From contig CAWKAG010000042.1 in NCBI GenBank assembly GCA_963847455.1, positions 27,161 to 91,160 on the forward strand: a stretch of 64,000 nt of DNA, read 5' to 3'. Below the pieces are notes generated by a model that saw only the letters and a list, made by a program, of their open reading frames with translations, was not told the DNA's origin and did no database searches. Of this stretch, positions 41,455 through 48,054 are shown one piece after another (position 1 is the stretch's first letter; the number at the start of each line of letters is the position of its first letter). The stretch is from an uncultured Acidimicrobiia bacterium (GTDB lineage: Bacteria > Actinomycetota > Acidimicrobiia > Spongiisociales > JAENVV01). The position numbers and the translations under genes were made by a program.

Positions 41455-41533
41455 CCGGTGGATTGTAGTTTCGGTGTTCGCGCACAAAGACCCGGCATGC
41501 TCCCAGCGGCGGGTCGCTAAAGTCTCAGGTCGC

Positions 41534-42445
41534 ATGTCTGACTCAGATAAATCAAGAATTCCCGTGGTTGTCACCGGATTTGTAATGGGAGCCGCCGATC
41601 TGGTTCCTGGCGTTTCGGGAGGCACTATCGCGCTCGTGTTCGGGATCTATGATCGCCTGCTGGCGGCTATCACGTCATTCAACCTGACCAACCTTCGAGT
41701 GCTCCTGAAGGGTGAAGGACGAAACTTCGCCCGCGCCACCAGCCTCCCGTTCGTCCTTACGTTGGGATTGGGAATCGGCACAGCCATCATTGCCCTGTCC
41801 GAACCTCTTGGCCGCTTGCTCGACGACGCCAACGGACGCATCGTCCTCTTCTCGTTCTTCTTCGGTCTGGTAATCGCCTCGGTCTATGTGATTGGTCGAC
41901 GGGTGAGTTGGATGACCCCGACGCGGATCGCCTTCACGCTTGGTGTCCTGGCTGGTCTGGTAATTGTGCAACTCACCCCGACGACGGGATCGGCGGCCCC
42001 GCTGGCCCTCTTCGCATCGGGAGCGATTGCAATTTGTGCGATGGTCCTCCCGGGTATCTCCGGCTCGTTCATCCTCGTAATCCTCGGCCAGTACGACAAC
42101 GTCCTTGACGCCGTCCGGGAGCGCAACATCGGAACCGTGCTCATCTTCGGTGCCGGGACCGTGGTGGGATTAGCTCTATTCGCTCGACTTCTTCAAAGGC
42201 TCCTCGCCCGCCACCATGACTTGACTATGGCGGTTCTCGCCGGGTTTATGGGCGGCTCGCTTTGGAAGATCTGGCCGTGGCGAACCTGTGTGACCCTCGG
42301 GCCGGACGGCCACTGTTTGACCGACGCATTGAGCTCCCCAACACTCGATAGTTATGCACTTTTGGGGGCGATTCTGGCACTTGTTGGCGCCGGCGTAGTG
42401 GTGTTGGTTGACCACTTAGGGCGCGCACCAAATAGAACCGCTTGA
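41534..42445 (+). CDS. DUF368 family membrane protein (undecaprenyl-phosphate recycling family)
   Basis: GAADLVPGVSGGT and MVLPGISGS repeats. Confidence 0.9.
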   Translation: MSDSDKSRIPVVVTGFVMGAADLVPGVSGGTIALVFGIYDRLLAAITSFNLTNLRVLLKGEGRNFARATSLPFVLTLGLGIGTAIIALSEPLGRLLDDANGRIVLFSFFFGLVIASVYVIGRRVSWMTPTRIAFTLGVLAGLVIVQLTPTTGSAAPLALFASGAIAICAMVLPGISGSFILVILGQYDNVLDAVRERNIGTVLIFGAGTVVGLALFARLLQRLLARHHDLTMAVLAGFMGGSLWKIWPWRTCVTLGPDGHCLTDALSSPTLDSYALLGAILALVGAGVVVLVDHLGRAPNRTA

Positions 42446-42471
42446 CACCGCGCGATACACCCCGATACGAT
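42442..42471 (+). promoter_or_regulatory. near-consensus sigma70/SigA promoter
   Basis: TTGACA (42442-42447), 18-nt spacer, TACGAT (42466-42471). No convincing CDS downstream. Confidence 0.8.
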
Positions 42472-42477
42472 GACCAG

Positions 42478-42619
42478 GCACCGGAGCAATCCGGATGCGA
42501 CCCCCAAAAAGGGCGAGCAGTTGAGCACGGTCTTACCCTGGCGCCGTACTCGCTACGACTCTCGCTTAGCTCCTTCGGGAGTAGAGGCTCCGGAACCCCC
42601 AACCGGAGCCTCATTTTTT
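42478..42619 (+). ncRNA. putative ~140-nt structured small RNA of unknown family
   Basis: Bounded by the promoter and terminator. Contains CCGGA-GCAA-TCCGG, a long GCGAG...CTCGC interrupted stem, and GCTCC-TTCG-GGAGT. Confidence 0.75.
42584..42619 (+). terminator. intrinsic terminator
   Basis: GAGGCTCCGG-AACCCCCAA-CCGGAGCCTC-A-TTTTTT (perfect 10-bp stem plus U tract). Confidence 0.88.
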
Positions 42620-42827
42620 AACCTGTCATCGATGACCGATGACGGACTTCGTTTTCGGGGTCACGAATCGAGCCGACGGGCACCGGATTGTCGCCCCACT
42701 TGGGACGGCCAAACAGAATCGCATGAGCGATGTCTTCAGCGTCTACCCAGTAATCCCCGGCGGCGATCCGTTCTGCCAGATCGTCGAGCCGCCGATTCCA
42801 CCACGTCGTTGAGTCCTTCTTGTGCAC
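42618..42827 (-). CDS. small FlgM-like (anti-sigma28 C-terminal motif) protein, 69 aa
   Basis: RLDDLAERIAAGDYWVDAEDIAHAIL matches the FlgM C-terminal pattern (I..G.Y.VD...IA). GTG start 6 nt after GCCGATAC. Confidence 0.7.
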   Translation of the reverse strand: MHKKDSTTWWNRRLDDLAERIAAGDYWVDAEDIAHAILFGRPKWGDNPVPVGSIRDPENEVRHRSSMTG

Positions 42828-42833
42828 CCTTAG

Positions 42834-42861
42834 GTATCGGCAGCGACATGGCTGTAATTGA
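42834..42861 (-). promoter_or_regulatory. sigma28 (FliA/WhiG/SigD)-type promoter candidate
   Basis: Minus strand TCAA-N16-GCCGATAC, against the consensus TAAA-N15/16-GCCGATAA. Confidence 0.6.
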
Positions 42862-42876
42862 GGAAAACCCTCAGGT

Positions 42877-43167
42877 TTAGCTACGTTCCCAGCGACCCTC
42901 ACGCATTACCGCCACGGCAACGATCTCCGGATCTACTTCATACTCGCCAGCTTGAATCAATCCACGCAGCTCACCAAGCAGGGCCTTGCGCTCCTCAGGG
43001 GTGGCCATGGGAGACAAGTGAGGACCGTCAAAAGGATCGACGATCGAAAACGGATCGGCCCCCAACAACTGGTCGGCTGGCATGGGGTTGGCTGGCGTCT
43101 GGCTGGCCGACTTGGCTTCGGCCGCAACATCACTTACCGAATTCTCGTCGCTATCTGAAGCCCCCAT
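42877..43167 (-). CDS. second FlgM-like protein, ~96 aa
   Basis: Low-complexity N-terminus, then ERKALLGELRGLIQAGEYEVDPEIVAVAVM. ATG lies 7 nt after TAGGAT; the start could instead be the internal MATPEE. Confidence 0.65.
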   Translation of the reverse strand: MGASDSDENSVSDVAAEAKSASQTPANPMPADQLLGADPFSIVDPFDGPHLSPMATPEERKALLGELRGLIQAGEYEVDPEIVAVAVMREGRWERS

Positions 43168-43301
43168 GAGGAATATCCTACCCACGGGTCGAGGATTCAC
43201 CTAGTAAAAAACAACCGGCGCCCGGCTAACGCAACGAGCCTTGACAGGCAGTTCCGTACGTTCTGGCTACGCCGAACCCTGGTTGGCTGTACCCTTGACC
43301 C

Positions 43302-44309
43302 ATGACTATTGGAGTACTCGGGGCAGGTTCATGGGGAACCGCAGTGGCAGCGTTGGCAGCAGCAAAAAACGACACACTCCTGTGGGCGCGCCGACCCGAT
43401 GTCGCCGATGCCATCAACCGCGATCATGTCAACCCGTCATACATCAGCGAGTTCCCGCTTCCCGAACCGCTCGTGGCTAGTTCCGATATTCACAAAGTCG
43501 CGGGCAACTGCGAGGTGCTGATCATTGGCGTGCCTTCGCACGGATTTCGCAGCATTCTCGAAATTGCGGCTGGATCGATCCCCGAGTCCGTCCCGATTCT
43601 TTCCCTGACCAAAGGGATCGAGGCCGGGACGCTGATGCGTATGACCGAGGTCATCGCCGACGTCCTGCCCAACCACCCGCGCGATCAGATCGGCGTCCTG
43701 TCTGGTCCAAACCTCGCCAAGGAGATCATGGCCGGCCAACCCGCCGCCACCGTAATCGCGTTGCCAGACCTCAACCTCGCTGAAGAGGTTCAGACCCGAT
43801 TCATGACTCCGACATTCCGGGTATACACCAACCCCGACGTAGTCGGGTGCGAGATCGCCGGAGCTTGCAAGAACGTCATGGCGATTGCTTCGGGAATGGT
43901 CTCAGGTCTCGGCTTCGGCGACAACACCCGGGCCGCCCTCATAACGAGAGCTCTCGCCGAACTCGTCAGACTCGGCATTGCGGTCGGCGGCAATCCGCTC
44001 ACCTTCGGCGGATTGGCCGGCGTCGGTGATCTGGTGGCAACGTGTTACTCATCCCAGAGCCGCAACTATACGGTCGGGCATGGTCTCGGGGAAGGCAAAC
44101 CACTCGACGACATCATTGCCGAAATGAACATGGTGGCTGAAGGCGTCAAATCCACGGCTGGCGTTCTCGCTCTGGCCGACAAGGCCAACGTCGAAATGCC
44201 GATCGCCGTTGAAGTCGGGCGGGTCTTGTACGAGGGCGCCGACCCGAAATCGTCGATGATGGCGCTGATGGGGCGAACCGCCAAGTCCGAAGGACACGGG
44301 ATCTTTTAA
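43302..44309 (+). CDS. gpsA: NAD(P)H-dependent glycerol-3-phosphate dehydrogenase
   Basis: GAGSWGT, SGPNLAKE, KNVMAIA, GDLVATC...SRN. Confidence 0.96.
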   Translation: MTIGVLGAGSWGTAVAALAAAKNDTLLWARRPDVADAINRDHVNPSYISEFPLPEPLVASSDIHKVAGNCEVLIIGVPSHGFRSILEIAAGSIPESVPILSLTKGIEAGTLMRMTEVIADVLPNHPRDQIGVLSGPNLAKEIMAGQPAATVIALPDLNLAEEVQTRFMTPTFRVYTNPDVVGCEIAGACKNVMAIASGMVSGLGFGDNTRAALITRALAELVRLGIAVGGNPLTFGGLAGVGDLVATCYSSQSRNYTVGHGLGEGKPLDDIIAEMNMVAEGVKSTAGVLALADKANVEMPIAVEVGRVLYEGADPKSSMMALMGRTAKSEGHGIF

Positions 44310-44371: not shown

Positions 44372-46891
44372 CTAGTTACCAACCACAATCGTGGCGCCCG
44401 TGGCCGGGTCTTTGTCGAGGACCAACAAATCTTCGATCCGGTCTTTCATGTCGGGCACGTGGCTGACGATCACGACCAGTCGATCATCATGCCCCGCCAC
44501 CAACGATTCGATTCCGGCCATCGCCAGGTCGAGATGCTCGGCATCAAGCGATCCGAACCCTTCGTCGAGGAAGAACGAATCAAGCCGACCACTACCGCGA
44601 GACACCATCTCGGCGAGCGCCAGGGCGAGGGCTAGTGACGCAAGAAATGTCTCCCCTCCCGAGAGCGTCGAGGATTTCCTCACCTGTTCGGCCGCGTTCA
44701 GATCGAGAATGTTGAAGTCACCATCATCGGAGAAGCGGTAGCGGCCCCCGGAAAGCTGTTCGAATTGCTCGGACGACACCCGGCCCAGTTCGGCCCGCTC
44801 CTCTTCGAGGAGATAGCCAAGGAATGCGGCCGGACGAAGGTCCTTGGCGAGATCATCGTACAGGTCAGCAACCGTTTGCCTGGCGATGATCTGTGCATCG
44901 AGGTCGGCCGCCTGAGCGAGGCGCTCATTGCGAACATCGACTTCGCGCTGGGCTGCCGCCACCGCCGCGACTGCATTGGAAAGCGCCTTCCCAAAGTCGT
45001 CATCTGGCGAGAGACCGAGTGCTTCCATAGCCTCAGCTCGAAGCCGGGTGGCTTCGGCAAGACGAGCAACCGCCGCTTCCCGGGTATCCAACGCCTGCTT
45101 CTGTCGTTCCACCCAGACCTCTCGCACCGAAGCCAGGAGTTGCTCAGTGTCGGTCGCCTCGAGCAGGTCGTCGTGCTCAACCGCCAACTGAGACGCCAGC
45201 CTCGACACGGTCAACGTCAGATTTCGCAGGCCCGCTTCGGCTTGATCCACCTGTTTCTGGCCATTGTCGACTTCGGCATCCGCTTCCCTCTTGGTGGCTT
45301 CGAGACTCTTCATCCGAGCCTCGACCGCCAGGAGGCGTTCCTCGATCTCAGCGAGTCGCTCTACCGGCTTTTTGCCGAGGATTGCGACCAGCGCCTGCTC
45401 GATTTCTTCCACCAACGCAGACGCCTTTTCGGAAGCTTGTTTGGCTTCAGCGGCCACCGCTTCGATGTCGGCTAGAGATTTCTCGGCACTGTTCACGGCT
45501 TCGGTCACGGTGGCCGACTCGGCAAGGGCAGCCTTCTCGGCGGCCGCAGATTCCGCCAACTCGCTCCGTGCTTTGTCCCTGGCCTTTTCAAGTTTCGCCA
45601 GGGCCGTTCCTGCCTTGCTCGGGGCAGGTACCGCGGCGACTGGTTGGGCGCAAACCGGACACTCGCCATCGGCAACGAGTCCTGCCCGTAAGGTCGCAGC
45701 CATTTCGGCGTGGCGCCCCTCGTGGAGCGCCTCGTCGGCGGCCGCCAGCGCCACGGTCGCGGAAGCTGTTTTCTCGACCAGAGCAGTGGCTTTGGCGACG
45801 AGCTTCTCAGCCTCCTTGGTGGTCTTCTTGACGAGCGCGACAGCTACTTCGACTTTGGCGACGGCGTCGGTGTGTCTCACCGATTCACGCTCCGCACCGG
45901 CCCGAGCATCGGCCAACCGGGTCACCTGCTGACGGGCCACGGCTAGCTGCGCTTCGTCACCGACGGATTCCAGAACGTCGAGGCGCTCCTGACGGGCAGC
46001 GTTTATCGCCGCGCCGGCTTCCCGAGCGCGCGCTTTGGCGGCGACCAATTCGGATATTCTCACGCCGTGATCCTTGAGGATCTTCTGGCTTTCACCGCTG
46101 TCGGGCATCCGTTCGGCGAGCACTTTCAACGCCGCGGTCTGTTCGCCCGCCCGGTCGATCTCCGTCTGAGCAGCCTTGCGGACGGCCTCGGCGGATTCGA
46201 CGACCGGTTCACGTTCTACAAGCGTGTTGAGCCGTTCAGTCGATGTCACGAGAACTTCGGCAGCCCGAACTGCGAGGGCTTTCACATTGTCCAGGTCAGC
46301 CTTGCGACGGCCGAACTCTTCGAGGTCTCGTTTGGCCTCGTCCCGGATCCGCTTGGCGACGGACTCCATGACATCCACCTTGTCGAGGCCGAACACGCCT
46401 TTGAGTACTTTGTCGCGCTCGGTACTCGTCGCCTTGAGAAAGTCTGAGAAACGACCCTGCGCCAACATCACCGAACGATTGAACCCATCGAAATCGACTC
46501 CGAGAATCTCCTCGATCCGCTCATCAACCGGGCCTTTCTGCAAGATCGTTTCAAGCGGCTCGCCGTCGGGATCATTCGGGTCTACCCGGTACAAGGCGTG
46601 GGCGCTCTGGCCGGTTCTGCGCAAGGCTCGGACCGATTTCCAACGTACGCCCTCGACGTCGAAGACAAACTCAACCTTGCCGACGTCGGCCCGTTGATGA
46701 ATGAGCGACTTCTGATTGGACTTCTCGGTCGGCGTCTTCCCGTACAGAGACAGGCAAATCGCGTCAAGGATCGACGACTTCCCGGATCCGATCGGGCCGA
46801 CGATCCCCACCAGGTGGCGATCGGTCCAGTCGATTTCGATCTCGCTGGCGTAAGACCGGAACCCGTCCAGGCGCAAGGTGACCGGTCTCAT
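44372..46891 (-). CDS. sbcC: SbcC/Rad50 SMC-like ATPase
   Basis: GPIGSGKS, Q-loop LAQG, coiled coil with CPVC zinc hook, LSGGE, FLDEGFGSLD. Confidence 0.94.
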   Translation of the reverse strand: MRPVTLRLDGFRSYASEIEIDWTDRHLVGIVGPIGSGKSSILDAICLSLYGKTPTEKSNQKSLIHQRADVGKVEFVFDVEGVRWKSVRALRRTGQSAHALYRVDPNDPDGEPLETILQKGPVDERIEEILGVDFDGFNRSVMLAQGRFSDFLKATSTERDKVLKGVFGLDKVDVMESVAKRIRDEAKRDLEEFGRRKADLDNVKALAVRAAEVLVTSTERLNTLVEREPVVESAEAVRKAAQTEIDRAGEQTAALKVLAERMPDSGESQKILKDHGVRISELVAAKARAREAGAAINAARQERLDVLESVGDEAQLAVARQQVTRLADARAGAERESVRHTDAVAKVEVAVALVKKTTKEAEKLVAKATALVEKTASATVALAAADEALHEGRHAEMAATLRAGLVADGECPVCAQPVAAVPAPSKAGTALAKLEKARDKARSELAESAAAEKAALAESATVTEAVNSAEKSLADIEAVAAEAKQASEKASALVEEIEQALVAILGKKPVERLAEIEERLLAVEARMKSLEATKREADAEVDNGQKQVDQAEAGLRNLTLTVSRLASQLAVEHDDLLEATDTEQLLASVREVWVERQKQALDTREAAVARLAEATRLRAEAMEALGLSPDDDFGKALSNAVAAVAAAQREVDVRNERLAQAADLDAQIIARQTVADLYDDLAKDLRPAAFLGYLLEEERAELGRVSSEQFEQLSGGRYRFSDDGDFNILDLNAAEQVRKSSTLSGGETFLASLALALALAEMVSRGSGRLDSFFLDEGFGSLDAEHLDLAMAGIESLVAGHDDRLVVIVSHVPDMKDRIEDLLVLDKDPATGATIVVGN

Positions 46892-48054
46892 TCCTGGCGC
46901 CCGGCTTCGTCGAGGACCGTGCGGAAGGCGCCCAACAACTCGTCACGCGGTTCGGACCCGGTGCGTTCGATGACAAAATCCCGGTAGAGCTCGTCCCAGG
47001 CCAACCCGGACCGCGAGGGACGGTCCACTTCGGCGCGCGCATAGCTAGCGGACACTTTGACGAGGAACGGGAAGTGTTGACGAGCCCGATCTGCCAGGCC
47101 CGGATCAGGTCCGTCCGTTTCAACAGTGAGATCAACAAAAGCATCCACCAGGTCAGTACGTTCGGCCAACTCTTCCCACCGACCCGTCGCTCGGATGAGC
47201 CTTCGGCCACCCGAGAGATCAACCGATCTTGTCGAAGCCGGTAGGCCCGCGTCCGCTTCCACGATCACGACTCGTTTTTGTTCACCGGCCTCGCCAAAAT
47301 CGAGCTCCAATAACGATCCGGCGTACTCAGCAGGCACCTGGGCACCCGGCACCGGTTGGGGAGCATGGATATGTCCCATCGCCACGTAACTCAAAGACGT
47401 TGGCACAGCTTGGGAAGTCGCCGAATAGGCCTCGCCCATGTGCAGCGCCCTTTCCCCTCTTGGACGGCCATGGCCGCCGACCTTGGCACCGGTCACCATG
47501 AAATGGGCGACCAGCAGGGCTACCCCATCGGTCCCAGCCAATTCCGACGCCCGGCCGGCATAGGCCGTTGTGATCTGGCGAACCCGATCGGCATAGGAGC
47601 CGTACCAGGTGCCCATCTCTTCCATGAAGTCGACCACCCGGCCTTCGCGTAAGAACGGGAAACAGCCGATCGCCGCGTCACCGTTTCGGGTGGTGACCGT
47701 CAGAACCCCGCCGTCCTCGGGTCGTTTGACGTCGCCAACCAGCCGAACCCCGCGAGGCGCCATCAGCGGATCGAGGACCTCGAACAGGGCAGCTGAATCG
47801 TGGTTTCCGGCAACGGCCACGACGGGTCGGGTGCCGTCGGCCGAAAGATCCGTCAGGGTTTCCACGACGAGCGACAAGGCTTCCATCGGTGGAGCGGCCC
47901 GATCGAACAAGTCACCAGACACAATCACCAAATCCACGTCTTGGGCGTCGGCAACCTGAACTACCTCGGCGAGGACCTCACGATATTCGTCCATGCGGTC
48001 GTATCGGCCGAGCTTCTTGCCGACATGCCAGTCGGAGGTGTGCAGGATCTTCAC
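46888..48054 (-). CDS. sbcD: SbcD/Mre11 nuclease
   Basis: HTSDWHVG, GDLFD, GNHD, GHIH. Confidence 0.95.
   Translation of the reverse strand: MKILHTSDWHVGKKLGRYDRMDEYREVLAEVVQVADAQDVDLVIVSGDLFDRAAPPMEALSLVVETLTDLSADGTRPVVAVAGNHDSAALFEVLDPLMAPRGVRLVGDVKRPEDGGVLTVTTRNGDAAIGCFPFLREGRVVDFMEEMGTWYGSYADRVRQITTAYAGRASELAGTDGVALLVAHFMVTGAKVGGHGRPRGERALHMGEAYSATSQAVPTSLSYVAMGHIHAPQPVPGAQVPAEYAGSLLELDFGEAGEQKRVVIVEADAGLPASTRSVDLSGGRRLIRATGRWEELAERTDLVDAFVDLTVETDGPDPGLADRARQHFPFLVKVSASYARAEVDRPSRSGLAWDELYRDFVIERTGSEPRDELLGAFRTVLDEAGRQE

Follow-up and report, generated by a model that had tools for sequence, protein, structure and literature searches.

The 64,000-nucleotide (nt) stretch of an uncultured Acidimicrobiia genome that we analyzed (the window; G000:C42:27161-91160) holds, at positions 42442-42619 of its plus strand, an independent gene for a structured noncoding small RNA (sRNA) of ~140 nt, equipped with its own promoter and its own intrinsic terminator. 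Judged by its sequence, the RNA is a member of an uncatalogued family that extends over several families of one order of the Acidimicrobiia. A preliminary description of the locus had proposed a stand-alone, structured promoter-to-terminator RNA belonging to no known family: conservation, covariation, and a conserved promoter back the first part of that proposal, and searches with Rfam 15 agree with the second. No Rfam model matches anywhere in the 64-kb window at its gathering score, and at E ≤ 10 the region 42300-42750 yields nothing relevant, only chance-level matches (a small nucleolar RNA, and a raiA-hairpin of 13.3 bits that falls on the terminator); the paralogs and orthologs give nothing except sub-threshold matches to 6C RNA. 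Three findings go beyond the earlier proposal: the genome has two paralogs, the family is spread over several families of the order, and a third exposed element, CCCUGGC, occupies the apex of a long hairpin.

Within the genus, the unit at 42442-42619 is an island of conservation, to a degree exceeding chance. A 190-nt unit occurs in one copy in each of the seven other genomes of the genus (7/7) and is 94-99% identical there, whereas the flanking 3 kb are 71-90% identical. Measured per 50 nt, identity is 0.92, 0.98, 0.99, and 0.91 over 42436-42635, against ~0.55-0.85 in most flanking segments of that size, and the peak of 0.98-0.99 covers 42486-42585 (eight genomes of the genus).

The promoter is of the sigma-70 type and lies at 42442..42471 (+), with a -35 hexamer TTGACA (42442-42447), an 18-nt spacer, and a -10 hexamer TACGAT (42466-42471); it matches the consensus at 10 of 12 positions and predicts a start near 42477-42479. 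It is the one promoter-like site found in 41500-43500, where 0.8 would be expected from shuffles, and because a count of one in 2 kb is at the level of shuffled sequence and means little alone, the case for the gene rests on conservation. Both hexamers are invariant across the eight genomes of the genus, and the spacer is variable. Farther afield, the form TTGAC(A/G/C)-N17/18-TA(G/C)(G/C)(A/G)T stands 29-47 nt ahead of the model start in 25 of 26 orthologs of the window RNA (type A), spanning four families (3/3 in genus g1 of family f1, 6/6 in f6, 15/15 in f7, and 1/1 in f8; 0/1 in f3). This recurrence is the strongest argument that the window RNA is a primary transcript of its own. The TTGAC-type expression matched none of 16 genes of a second type (type B) and none of three f6 paralogs, which have other promoter forms or a -10 element lying across the search cut. 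A sigma-28-type promoter was dropped as a candidate, since the hexamers are of the sigma-70 type in all families. In the metatranscriptome run X20, one 306-nt contig covers 42490-42793 and crosses the terminator; contigs carry no strand, ends, or level, and this one is possibly DNA carry-over, so that we count it as evidence neither way.

Comparison between families shows fixed loops on replaced stems, with loop and linker lengths that vary from family to family. Our alignment, A6, consists of 45 sequences (16 of type B from f1, 3 of type A from the window's genus, 6 of type A plus 3 paralogs from f6, 15 from f7, 1 from f8, and 1 from f3), antisense terminator matches and partial rows being excluded. 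Standard pairs fill 90.0% of 1236 cells, versus 38.6-46.2% when the partners are slid by 1-3 columns; 22 of 28 pairs have changed on both sides (239 cells), and the covariation score is 0.514, versus 0.03-0.13 for slid partners. On four of five measures the observed value was reached by 0/500 shuffles; on the fifth, the number of doubly changed pairs, 1/500 reached it. Such changes affect all eight pairs of helix 1 (the basal stem), six of the seven pairs of helix 3 (the apical part), and 6 of the 11 pairs of helix 4 (the terminator), in which 98.6% of cells are paired. We take the covariation signal to be real because the slid controls are far lower and because stems have been rewritten wholesale (GCGAG/CUCGC, GGGUC/GACCC, and CAUAGG/UCUAUG are examples). 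Covarying homologs, which the preliminary description had named as a check on its proposal, were thus found. Cells with G-U outnumber those with A-C (72 versus 37), which fits the plus strand as the functional strand; the promoter and the U-tract point the same way.

Each element of the preliminary description (the TTGACA-N18-TACGAT promoter, the hairpins, the C-rich motif, and the terminator with its T6) lies where it had been placed. The minimum free energy (MFE) fold of 42474-42619 (+) consists of the same helices at -65.2 kcal/mol (z = -4.31; 1 of 200 shuffles as good), and the opposite strand of the same segment folds less distinctively (z = -2.19). In that fold, all on the plus strand, the 5′ hairpin GCA-CCGGA-[GCAA]-UCCGG-A-UGC (42478..42498) comes first; within the genus, a C-to-U change turns one of its pairs into G-U and the bulged A is lost, with pairing kept, and in other families its position is taken by a hairpin of unrelated sequence (as read off the alignments, outside the covariation count). 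There follows the unpaired C-rich linker ACCCCCAA (42500..42507) and then AAA; orthologs of f1, f6, f7, and f8 have a CCCC(C)AA-type stretch ahead of the long hairpin. The latter (42513..42565) is interrupted and comprises a basal stem GCGAG.AGU / ACU.CUCGC, a middle stem GAG / CUC (42523-42525 with 42549-42551), an apical stem ACGG / CCGU (42527-42530 with 42544-42547), and a 13-nt apical loop UCUUACCCUGGCG (42531-42543).

The apex of this long hairpin carries the signature of the family, CCCUGGC (42536..42542, +), as seen in individual folds and in the alignment. All 19 type-A and type-B sequences that were folded singly have CCC(U/C)GGC there, and all 19 also have a C-rich terminator loop; in the alignment, every position of CCCUGGC except the U is identical in 45/45 sequences, and the U is present in 44/45. 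Downstream of the long hairpin, the fold forms a short hairpin GCUCC-[UUCG]-GGAGU (42569..42582, +), whose counterparts in the orthologs of f7, f8, and the genera g4 and g5 have other stems and loops and which is absent in f6 (again read off the alignments, outside the formal count). The RNA ends in an intrinsic terminator (42584..42612, tail to 42619, +), evident in the sequence and the MFE fold alike: the 10-bp stem GAGGCUCCGG / CCGGAGCCUC encloses the loop AACCCCCAA (42594-42602), with its CCCCC run, and is followed by A and U6. The C-run of the terminator loop is kept in 42-45 of the 45 aligned sequences.

We traced the family with three successively named models. R1, built from the sequences of the genus plus two weak matches, recovered within f1 the orthologs of genus g5, one ortholog in g2, and a related second RNA, type B, which shares the motif CUUUCCCUGGCAUCGA and the terminator GGCUCCGG-UUACCCCCCUUA-CCGGAGCC. 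By DNA search, type B is found in 16 of 21 genomes of f1. Its copy in the present genome (G000:C42:93474-93663, minus strand; locus L148 1499-1649) lies ~2.3 kb beyond the end of the window and 24 kb from the window RNA, a spacing that is equal in G002, G004, and G008; it is flanked by an MscS-like gene and an IF-2B-family gene, one on each side, and has a long hairpin with the apex CUUUCCCUGGCA, a conserved stretch GUCCCGCAAC, and the terminator loop UUACCCCCCUUA. R2 represents type B with a structure set by hand from single-sequence folds, because a MAFFT alignment of type B yielded the terminator alone as consensus structure. It matches 47 of the 151 genomes of the order: 17/18 in f1, 6/7 in f6, 16/18 in f7, 2/2 in f5 (G025 and G036, both unpublished and not relied on for any other claim), 3/19 in f4, 1/2 in f3, and 1/7 in f8, with at least one of the f4 matches consisting of a terminator only (L219) and no match among the genomes of f2, f9, f10, f11, and f12. 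The sequences of f6, f7, and f8 are closer to the window's type A than to type B; they have in common CCCC(C)AA before the long hairpin, the apex CCCUGGCGCCG, usually an extra short hairpin, and terminator loops exemplified by CUCUACCCCCUUG.

A broader model, R3, matches 13/151 genomes in a search of the class, all 13 in f1, f4, f6, and f7, and 0/114 genomes from the other families of the class (f13 onward); filtering is stricter when more than 40 genomes are searched, so weak members may be missed. Unfiltered, R3 also detects type A in g4 (G010:C253:1195-1322), g5, and g2 and, in f4, one clear member (G090). A loose pattern scan of contigs returned at least 119 stretches, and R1 confirmed one of the 80 loci listed (L085, which coincides with G006); with so loose a pattern, the scan is uninformative on distribution. 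Three f6 genomes of genus g12 have a third type of paralog (L200 301-397; L201 301-404, minus strand; L203 301-397) with the apex UUUUCCCUGGCGCCG, a CCCCC terminator loop, other stems, and no TTGAC-type promoter match. In f4, glycine riboswitch aptamers (68.9 and 59.1 bits) adjoin C-rich-loop terminator hairpins matched by the models (L206 94-182 and L219 1-85, both minus strand).

The surroundings of the gene are conserved on one side. Upstream, the stop codon of a PF04018 membrane-protein gene overlaps the -35 hexamer, and the upstream gene differs by family, being PF04018 in f1 and murI in f6. Downstream, as the preliminary description had stated, no same-strand gene follows; the next genes are convergent. 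The nearest, orf94 (42618..42902, minus strand), is a small FlgM-like gene (PF04316, 20.0 bits against a cut-off of 25; TIGR03824, 16.1 bits) whose stop codon abuts the last base of the RNA, the RNA 3′ end and the stop being 1 nt apart; the listed GTG probably lies upstream of its true start. Upstream of orf94 lies a second small FlgM-like gene, orf107 (42877..43200, minus strand; PF04316, 19.7 bits against the same cut-off; TIGR03824, 21.2 bits), and beyond it gpsA. Both proteins carry the C-terminal FlgM motif, at scores below the cut-off in the window. In other families, where we scanned 16 of 17 homolog fragments (one was dropped for a stop codon), 7 of 8 orf107-type fragments (from f6, f7, and f8) exceed the Pfam cut-off for FlgM, and 7 of 8 orf94-type fragments match FlgM at E < 0.01, one of those over the cut-off. 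The gene orf107 is syntenic with the RNA in f6, f7, and f8. A match to orf94 is found in 25 genomes, and in 24 of them (one being the unpublished G025) the RNA lies within ~170 nt of the matched part: 23 of these are tail to tail and 1 (G011, of genus g5) is co-directional. The match in the 25th genome (G152) is weak and falls inside a 503-amino-acid (aa) frame. A riboswitch or cis-acting leader was rejected as an identity for the RNA: there is no downstream same-strand gene here, nor in 23 of the 24 genomes with the syntenic neighbor.

In genus g5, the flanking genes are the same two and the RNA cassette between them is inverted, which fits a self-contained cassette; a conserved TGGACG-N17-TA(A/G)CAT precedes the RNA. 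The first hairpin of these inverted copies (L009 1428-1590, minus strand; L010 1445-1605, plus strand) has a loop that holds the C-run CCCCCCU. The window's genome also encodes a FliA/WhiG-family sigma factor scoring over the curated cut-off (G000:C63:21139-21807, 273.6 bits), and its assembly, 86% complete, yielded no flagellin; orf94 and orf107 may be orphan anti-sigma factors of a nonflagellar sigma-28 system. Two hairpins that have T-runs and resemble terminators (43212-43228 and 43370-43393, minus strand) lie in or beside the divergent orf107-gpsA region, one of them just upstream of the listed start of orf107, where it could be a leader or attenuator. Farther along the window, at 44372-48054 (minus strand), tandem genes for SbcC-like (839 aa) and SbcD-like (388 aa) nucleases look like ordinary housekeeping genes.

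As to how the RNA works, we lean, with confidence slightly better than even, toward a trans-acting base-pairing sRNA of 6C-like design, in which C-rich loops would act on G-rich mRNA sites, by analogy with the way 6C is described as acting in the relevant part of PMC6486639. On sequence grounds, the locus has the general attributes that would be looked for in a gene for a trans-acting sRNA, namely, promoter, terminator, covarying structure, and no coding potential. A strong housekeeping-type promoter would produce an RNA of ~140 nt that ends at its own intrinsic terminator. Three conserved, unpaired pyrimidine- or C-rich elements presented on covarying stems (the linker ACCCCCAA, the CCCUGGC apical loop, and the CCCCC terminator loop) would serve as seeds that pair with G-rich single-stranded mRNA sites, typically around ribosome-binding sites, and pairing would alter the translation or stability of the mRNA, as it does for the chaperone-free 6C sRNA.

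The likeness to 6C, suggested in the preliminary description on account of the C-rich motifs, holds up as a working analogy with a weak reciprocal similarity of models, but not as membership. The 6C definition given in the pertinent passage of PMC5014011 calls for two stem-loops, ~80 nt in all, and at least six conserved cytosines per loop; set against that wording, the window RNA falls outside 6C, with 5 C in its terminator loop AACCCCCAA, 3 consecutive C in its apical loop UCUUACCCUGGCG, and ~140 nt with extra helices. The Rfam model of 6C, RF01066, does not match the window RNA at its gathering score (47 bits) or at E ≤ 10, and it exceeds the cut-off in 0/151 genomes of the order. One of its seven sub-threshold matches in the order falls on the family of the window RNA (a type-B copy of G020, which at 37.1 bits is the best sub-threshold score on the family), and the other six fall elsewhere. 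Scores on RF01066 are 32.5 and 32.2 bits for two orthologs of f7, whose extra hairpin and terminator align to the two 6C hairpins. Failure to reach this cut-off is weak evidence, because the known 6C of Corynebacterium glutamicum also stayed under it in a control. Conversely, the best match of R3 was the 6C RNA itself in 7/7 6C loci of other Actinomycetota (six over the Rfam cut-off and one just under, at 44.2 bits), at 17.7-24.5 bits versus ≤16.5 for the next best. We read these scores as a weak two-way similarity between models; a hairpin with a C-rich loop is simple and could be convergent.

In its layout, the window RNA resembles 6C (RF01066; B11 in mycobacteria and cgb_03605 in C. glutamicum) as a stand-alone Actinomycetota sRNA that has a housekeeping-type promoter and in which a variable 5′ hairpin precedes a hairpin and a terminator hairpin that display C-runs in their loops; the contexts of the terminator loops, CUCUACCCCCUUG in the f7 orthologs and cucUCCCCCCcug in the 6C consensus, are likewise similar. 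Unlike 6C, which has ~75-90 nt, the window RNA has ~140 nt and four or five helices, its first conserved loop reads CCCUGGC rather than six C, its terminator loop has 5 C, and it possesses an additional single-stranded ACCCCCAA and an additional UUCG hairpin. The two share no neighboring gene: tblastn of five window neighbors against the seven 6C loci gave nothing significant, and no relative of orf94, orf107, murI, the PF04018 gene, or gpsA was found there. Of separate interest is a two-hairpin element elsewhere in the genome (G000:C46:6222-6292, plus strand; L169 1501-1571), with a C-rich first loop (AACUCCCCACUCCCU) and a terminator at its end; it gives the genome's best 6C match (27.8 bits, sub-threshold) and is possibly another sRNA with C-rich loops.

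Other known systems are more remote. The RsaE/RoxS-type sRNAs of Bacillota use C-rich motifs on loops and linkers for chaperone-independent pairing with G-rich mRNA sites near the Shine-Dalgarno sequence. By their general description, they resemble the window RNA in having exposed C-rich motifs that are repeated two or three times; they differ in belonging to Bacillota, and no Rfam family of this type matched the window. The antisense RNAs of type I toxin-antitoxin systems (RatA/txpA and SR4/bsrG of Bacillus) are convergent with their partners and overlap them at the 3′ ends. Comparably, the window sRNA stands tail to tail with a small protein gene, and overlap of the 3′ transcript ends is expected; in contrast to those systems, its neighbor is a FlgM-like soluble protein rather than a hydrophobic toxin peptide, its paralogs occur elsewhere without such a neighbor, and its orientation is inverted in g5. 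The loose resemblance to Ms1 raised in the preliminary description, and with it 6S, was not supported: no such Rfam model matches the window at its gathering score, nor the region 42300-42750 at E ≤ 10, and the RNA folds into four separate hairpins in a row instead of a rod. The RNAs tRNA, tmRNA, RNase P, and that of the signal recognition particle were dropped for want of an Rfam match, which excludes them, as it does the riboswitches, to the extent that covariance models can tell.

Several results weigh against a base-pairing sRNA. Exact octamer complements of the exposed elements occur before candidate start codons no more often than the control does (7/87 versus 9/87 for the reverse-complement control, and 24/285 versus 27/285 in a second count), 13-16-mers with 2-3 mismatches gave no evident target site, and duplex energies with the neighboring orf107-orf94 FlgM-like mRNA are no better than those of shuffled elements; these target scans are crude, operating without gene calls and without an accessibility model. 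CCCUGGC is no plain C-run, and a 7-mer that stays unchanged across paralogs and families suits a protein-binding site equally well. Moreover, A6 was fitted to the model, a bias in favor of structure, and the single RNA-library record, the 306-nt contig of X20, runs across the terminator and could be DNA.

Two rival readings deserve to be taken seriously. The RNA could be a protein-binding or sequestering RNA whose CCCUGGC apex, with or without the C-rich loops, docks an RNA-binding protein, perhaps one tied to the FlgM-like proteins or to the WhiG/FliA-type sigma factor. For this speak the constancy of CCCUGGC (44-45 of 45 sequences have the 7-mer unaltered, and every paralog presents it in the same hairpin context), the conserved synteny with two FlgM-like genes, and the presence of a FliA/WhiG-family sigma factor in an assembly where flagellin was not found. 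We nevertheless consider it improbable: no RNA-binding protein is implicated, FlgM-like proteins are to our knowledge not RNA binders, the repeated multisite layout of CsrB-type sponges is missing, and the fold resembles neither 6S nor Ms1. A different view of the same neighborhood makes the RNA the cis-antisense partner of the convergent FlgM-like operon, with loop-loop kissing or duplex formation setting the stability of the anti-sigma mRNA, a role that could coexist with targets in trans. The orf107-orf94 mRNA must enter the reverse complement of the sRNA terminator, and its 3′ hairpin loop UUGGGGGUU would therefore exactly complement the sRNA loop AACCCCCAA. That the two 3′ ends meet within 1 nt, that the RNA accompanies orf94 in 24 of 25 genomes (23 convergent), that orf94 and orf107 are both FlgM-family proteins, and that the RNA-library contig spans the RNA-orf94 junction all agree with it. 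Yet the overlap is not kept in g5, because the RNA is inverted there and co-directional with orf94; the same two loops are retained by the type-B and f6 paralogs, which lie at unrelated loci; in f7, the query used detected no orf94 in genomes of g13 and g35 that possess the RNA; and two-way sharing of a terminator is common among convergent genes and needs no regulation. Taken together, these facts leave a cis-antisense role unlikely in our estimation.

Far lower still we rate the idea that there is no independent RNA at all. The structure would then be the 3′ untranslated region or terminator of the upstream PF04018 gene or, on the other strand, of orf94, as the overlap of the -35 hexamer with the PF04018 stop codon and the capacity of the terminator to serve both convergent genes might suggest. 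This is very hard to reconcile with a promoter conserved in 25/26 orthologs, with an upstream gene that varies (PF04018 in f1, murI in f6), with the inversion of the unit in g5, with the excess of G-U over A-C pairs on the plus strand, and with ~90 nt of conserved structure upstream of the terminator, far beyond what termination needs. Open frames do exist on the plus strand (42442-42621 and 42470-42880), and a small protein-coding gene could be read from them, but this we hold to be next to negligible in probability: a 1-nt indel within the genus breaks both overlapping frames and leaves pairing intact, all codon positions are almost equally invariant, substitutions between families track base pairing rather than codons, and the overlapping 136-aa frame has no Pfam match and runs antisense through orf94.

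The base-pairing sRNA thus favored describes a new family and not a new principle, and as a gene the locus is solidly supported. Its conserved pairing with FlgM-like genes is a testable link and the part most worth following. A bolder and rather doubtful extension, which asks for two things at once, would unite the sRNA and the two tail-to-tail FlgM-like anti-sigma genes in one conserved regulatory module and would at the same time make the family a deep-branching, enlarged relative of 6C. In such a module, the CCCCC terminator loop of the sRNA would form a kissing complex with a complementary GGGGG loop at the 3′ terminus of the anti-sigma mRNA, or, alternatively, the RNA would bind the anti-sigma proteins. 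Were the module real, control of an alternative sigma factor of the WhiG/FliA type would involve an abundant sRNA, in a bacterium whose 86%-complete assembly yielded no flagellin; were the kinship with 6C real, the origin of C-rich-loop sRNAs would predate the divergence of Acidimicrobiia and Actinomycetes.

Almost uncultured, Acidimicrobiia abound in sediments and waters, and our full-text literature searches found no regulatory RNA described for them, 6C included. Strongly conserved sRNAs with a near-consensus promoter are usually abundant global regulators. Chaperone-free pairing through C-rich loops has so far been documented for 6C in Actinomycetes, and the window RNA would add a second class of the phylum to the range of that principle.

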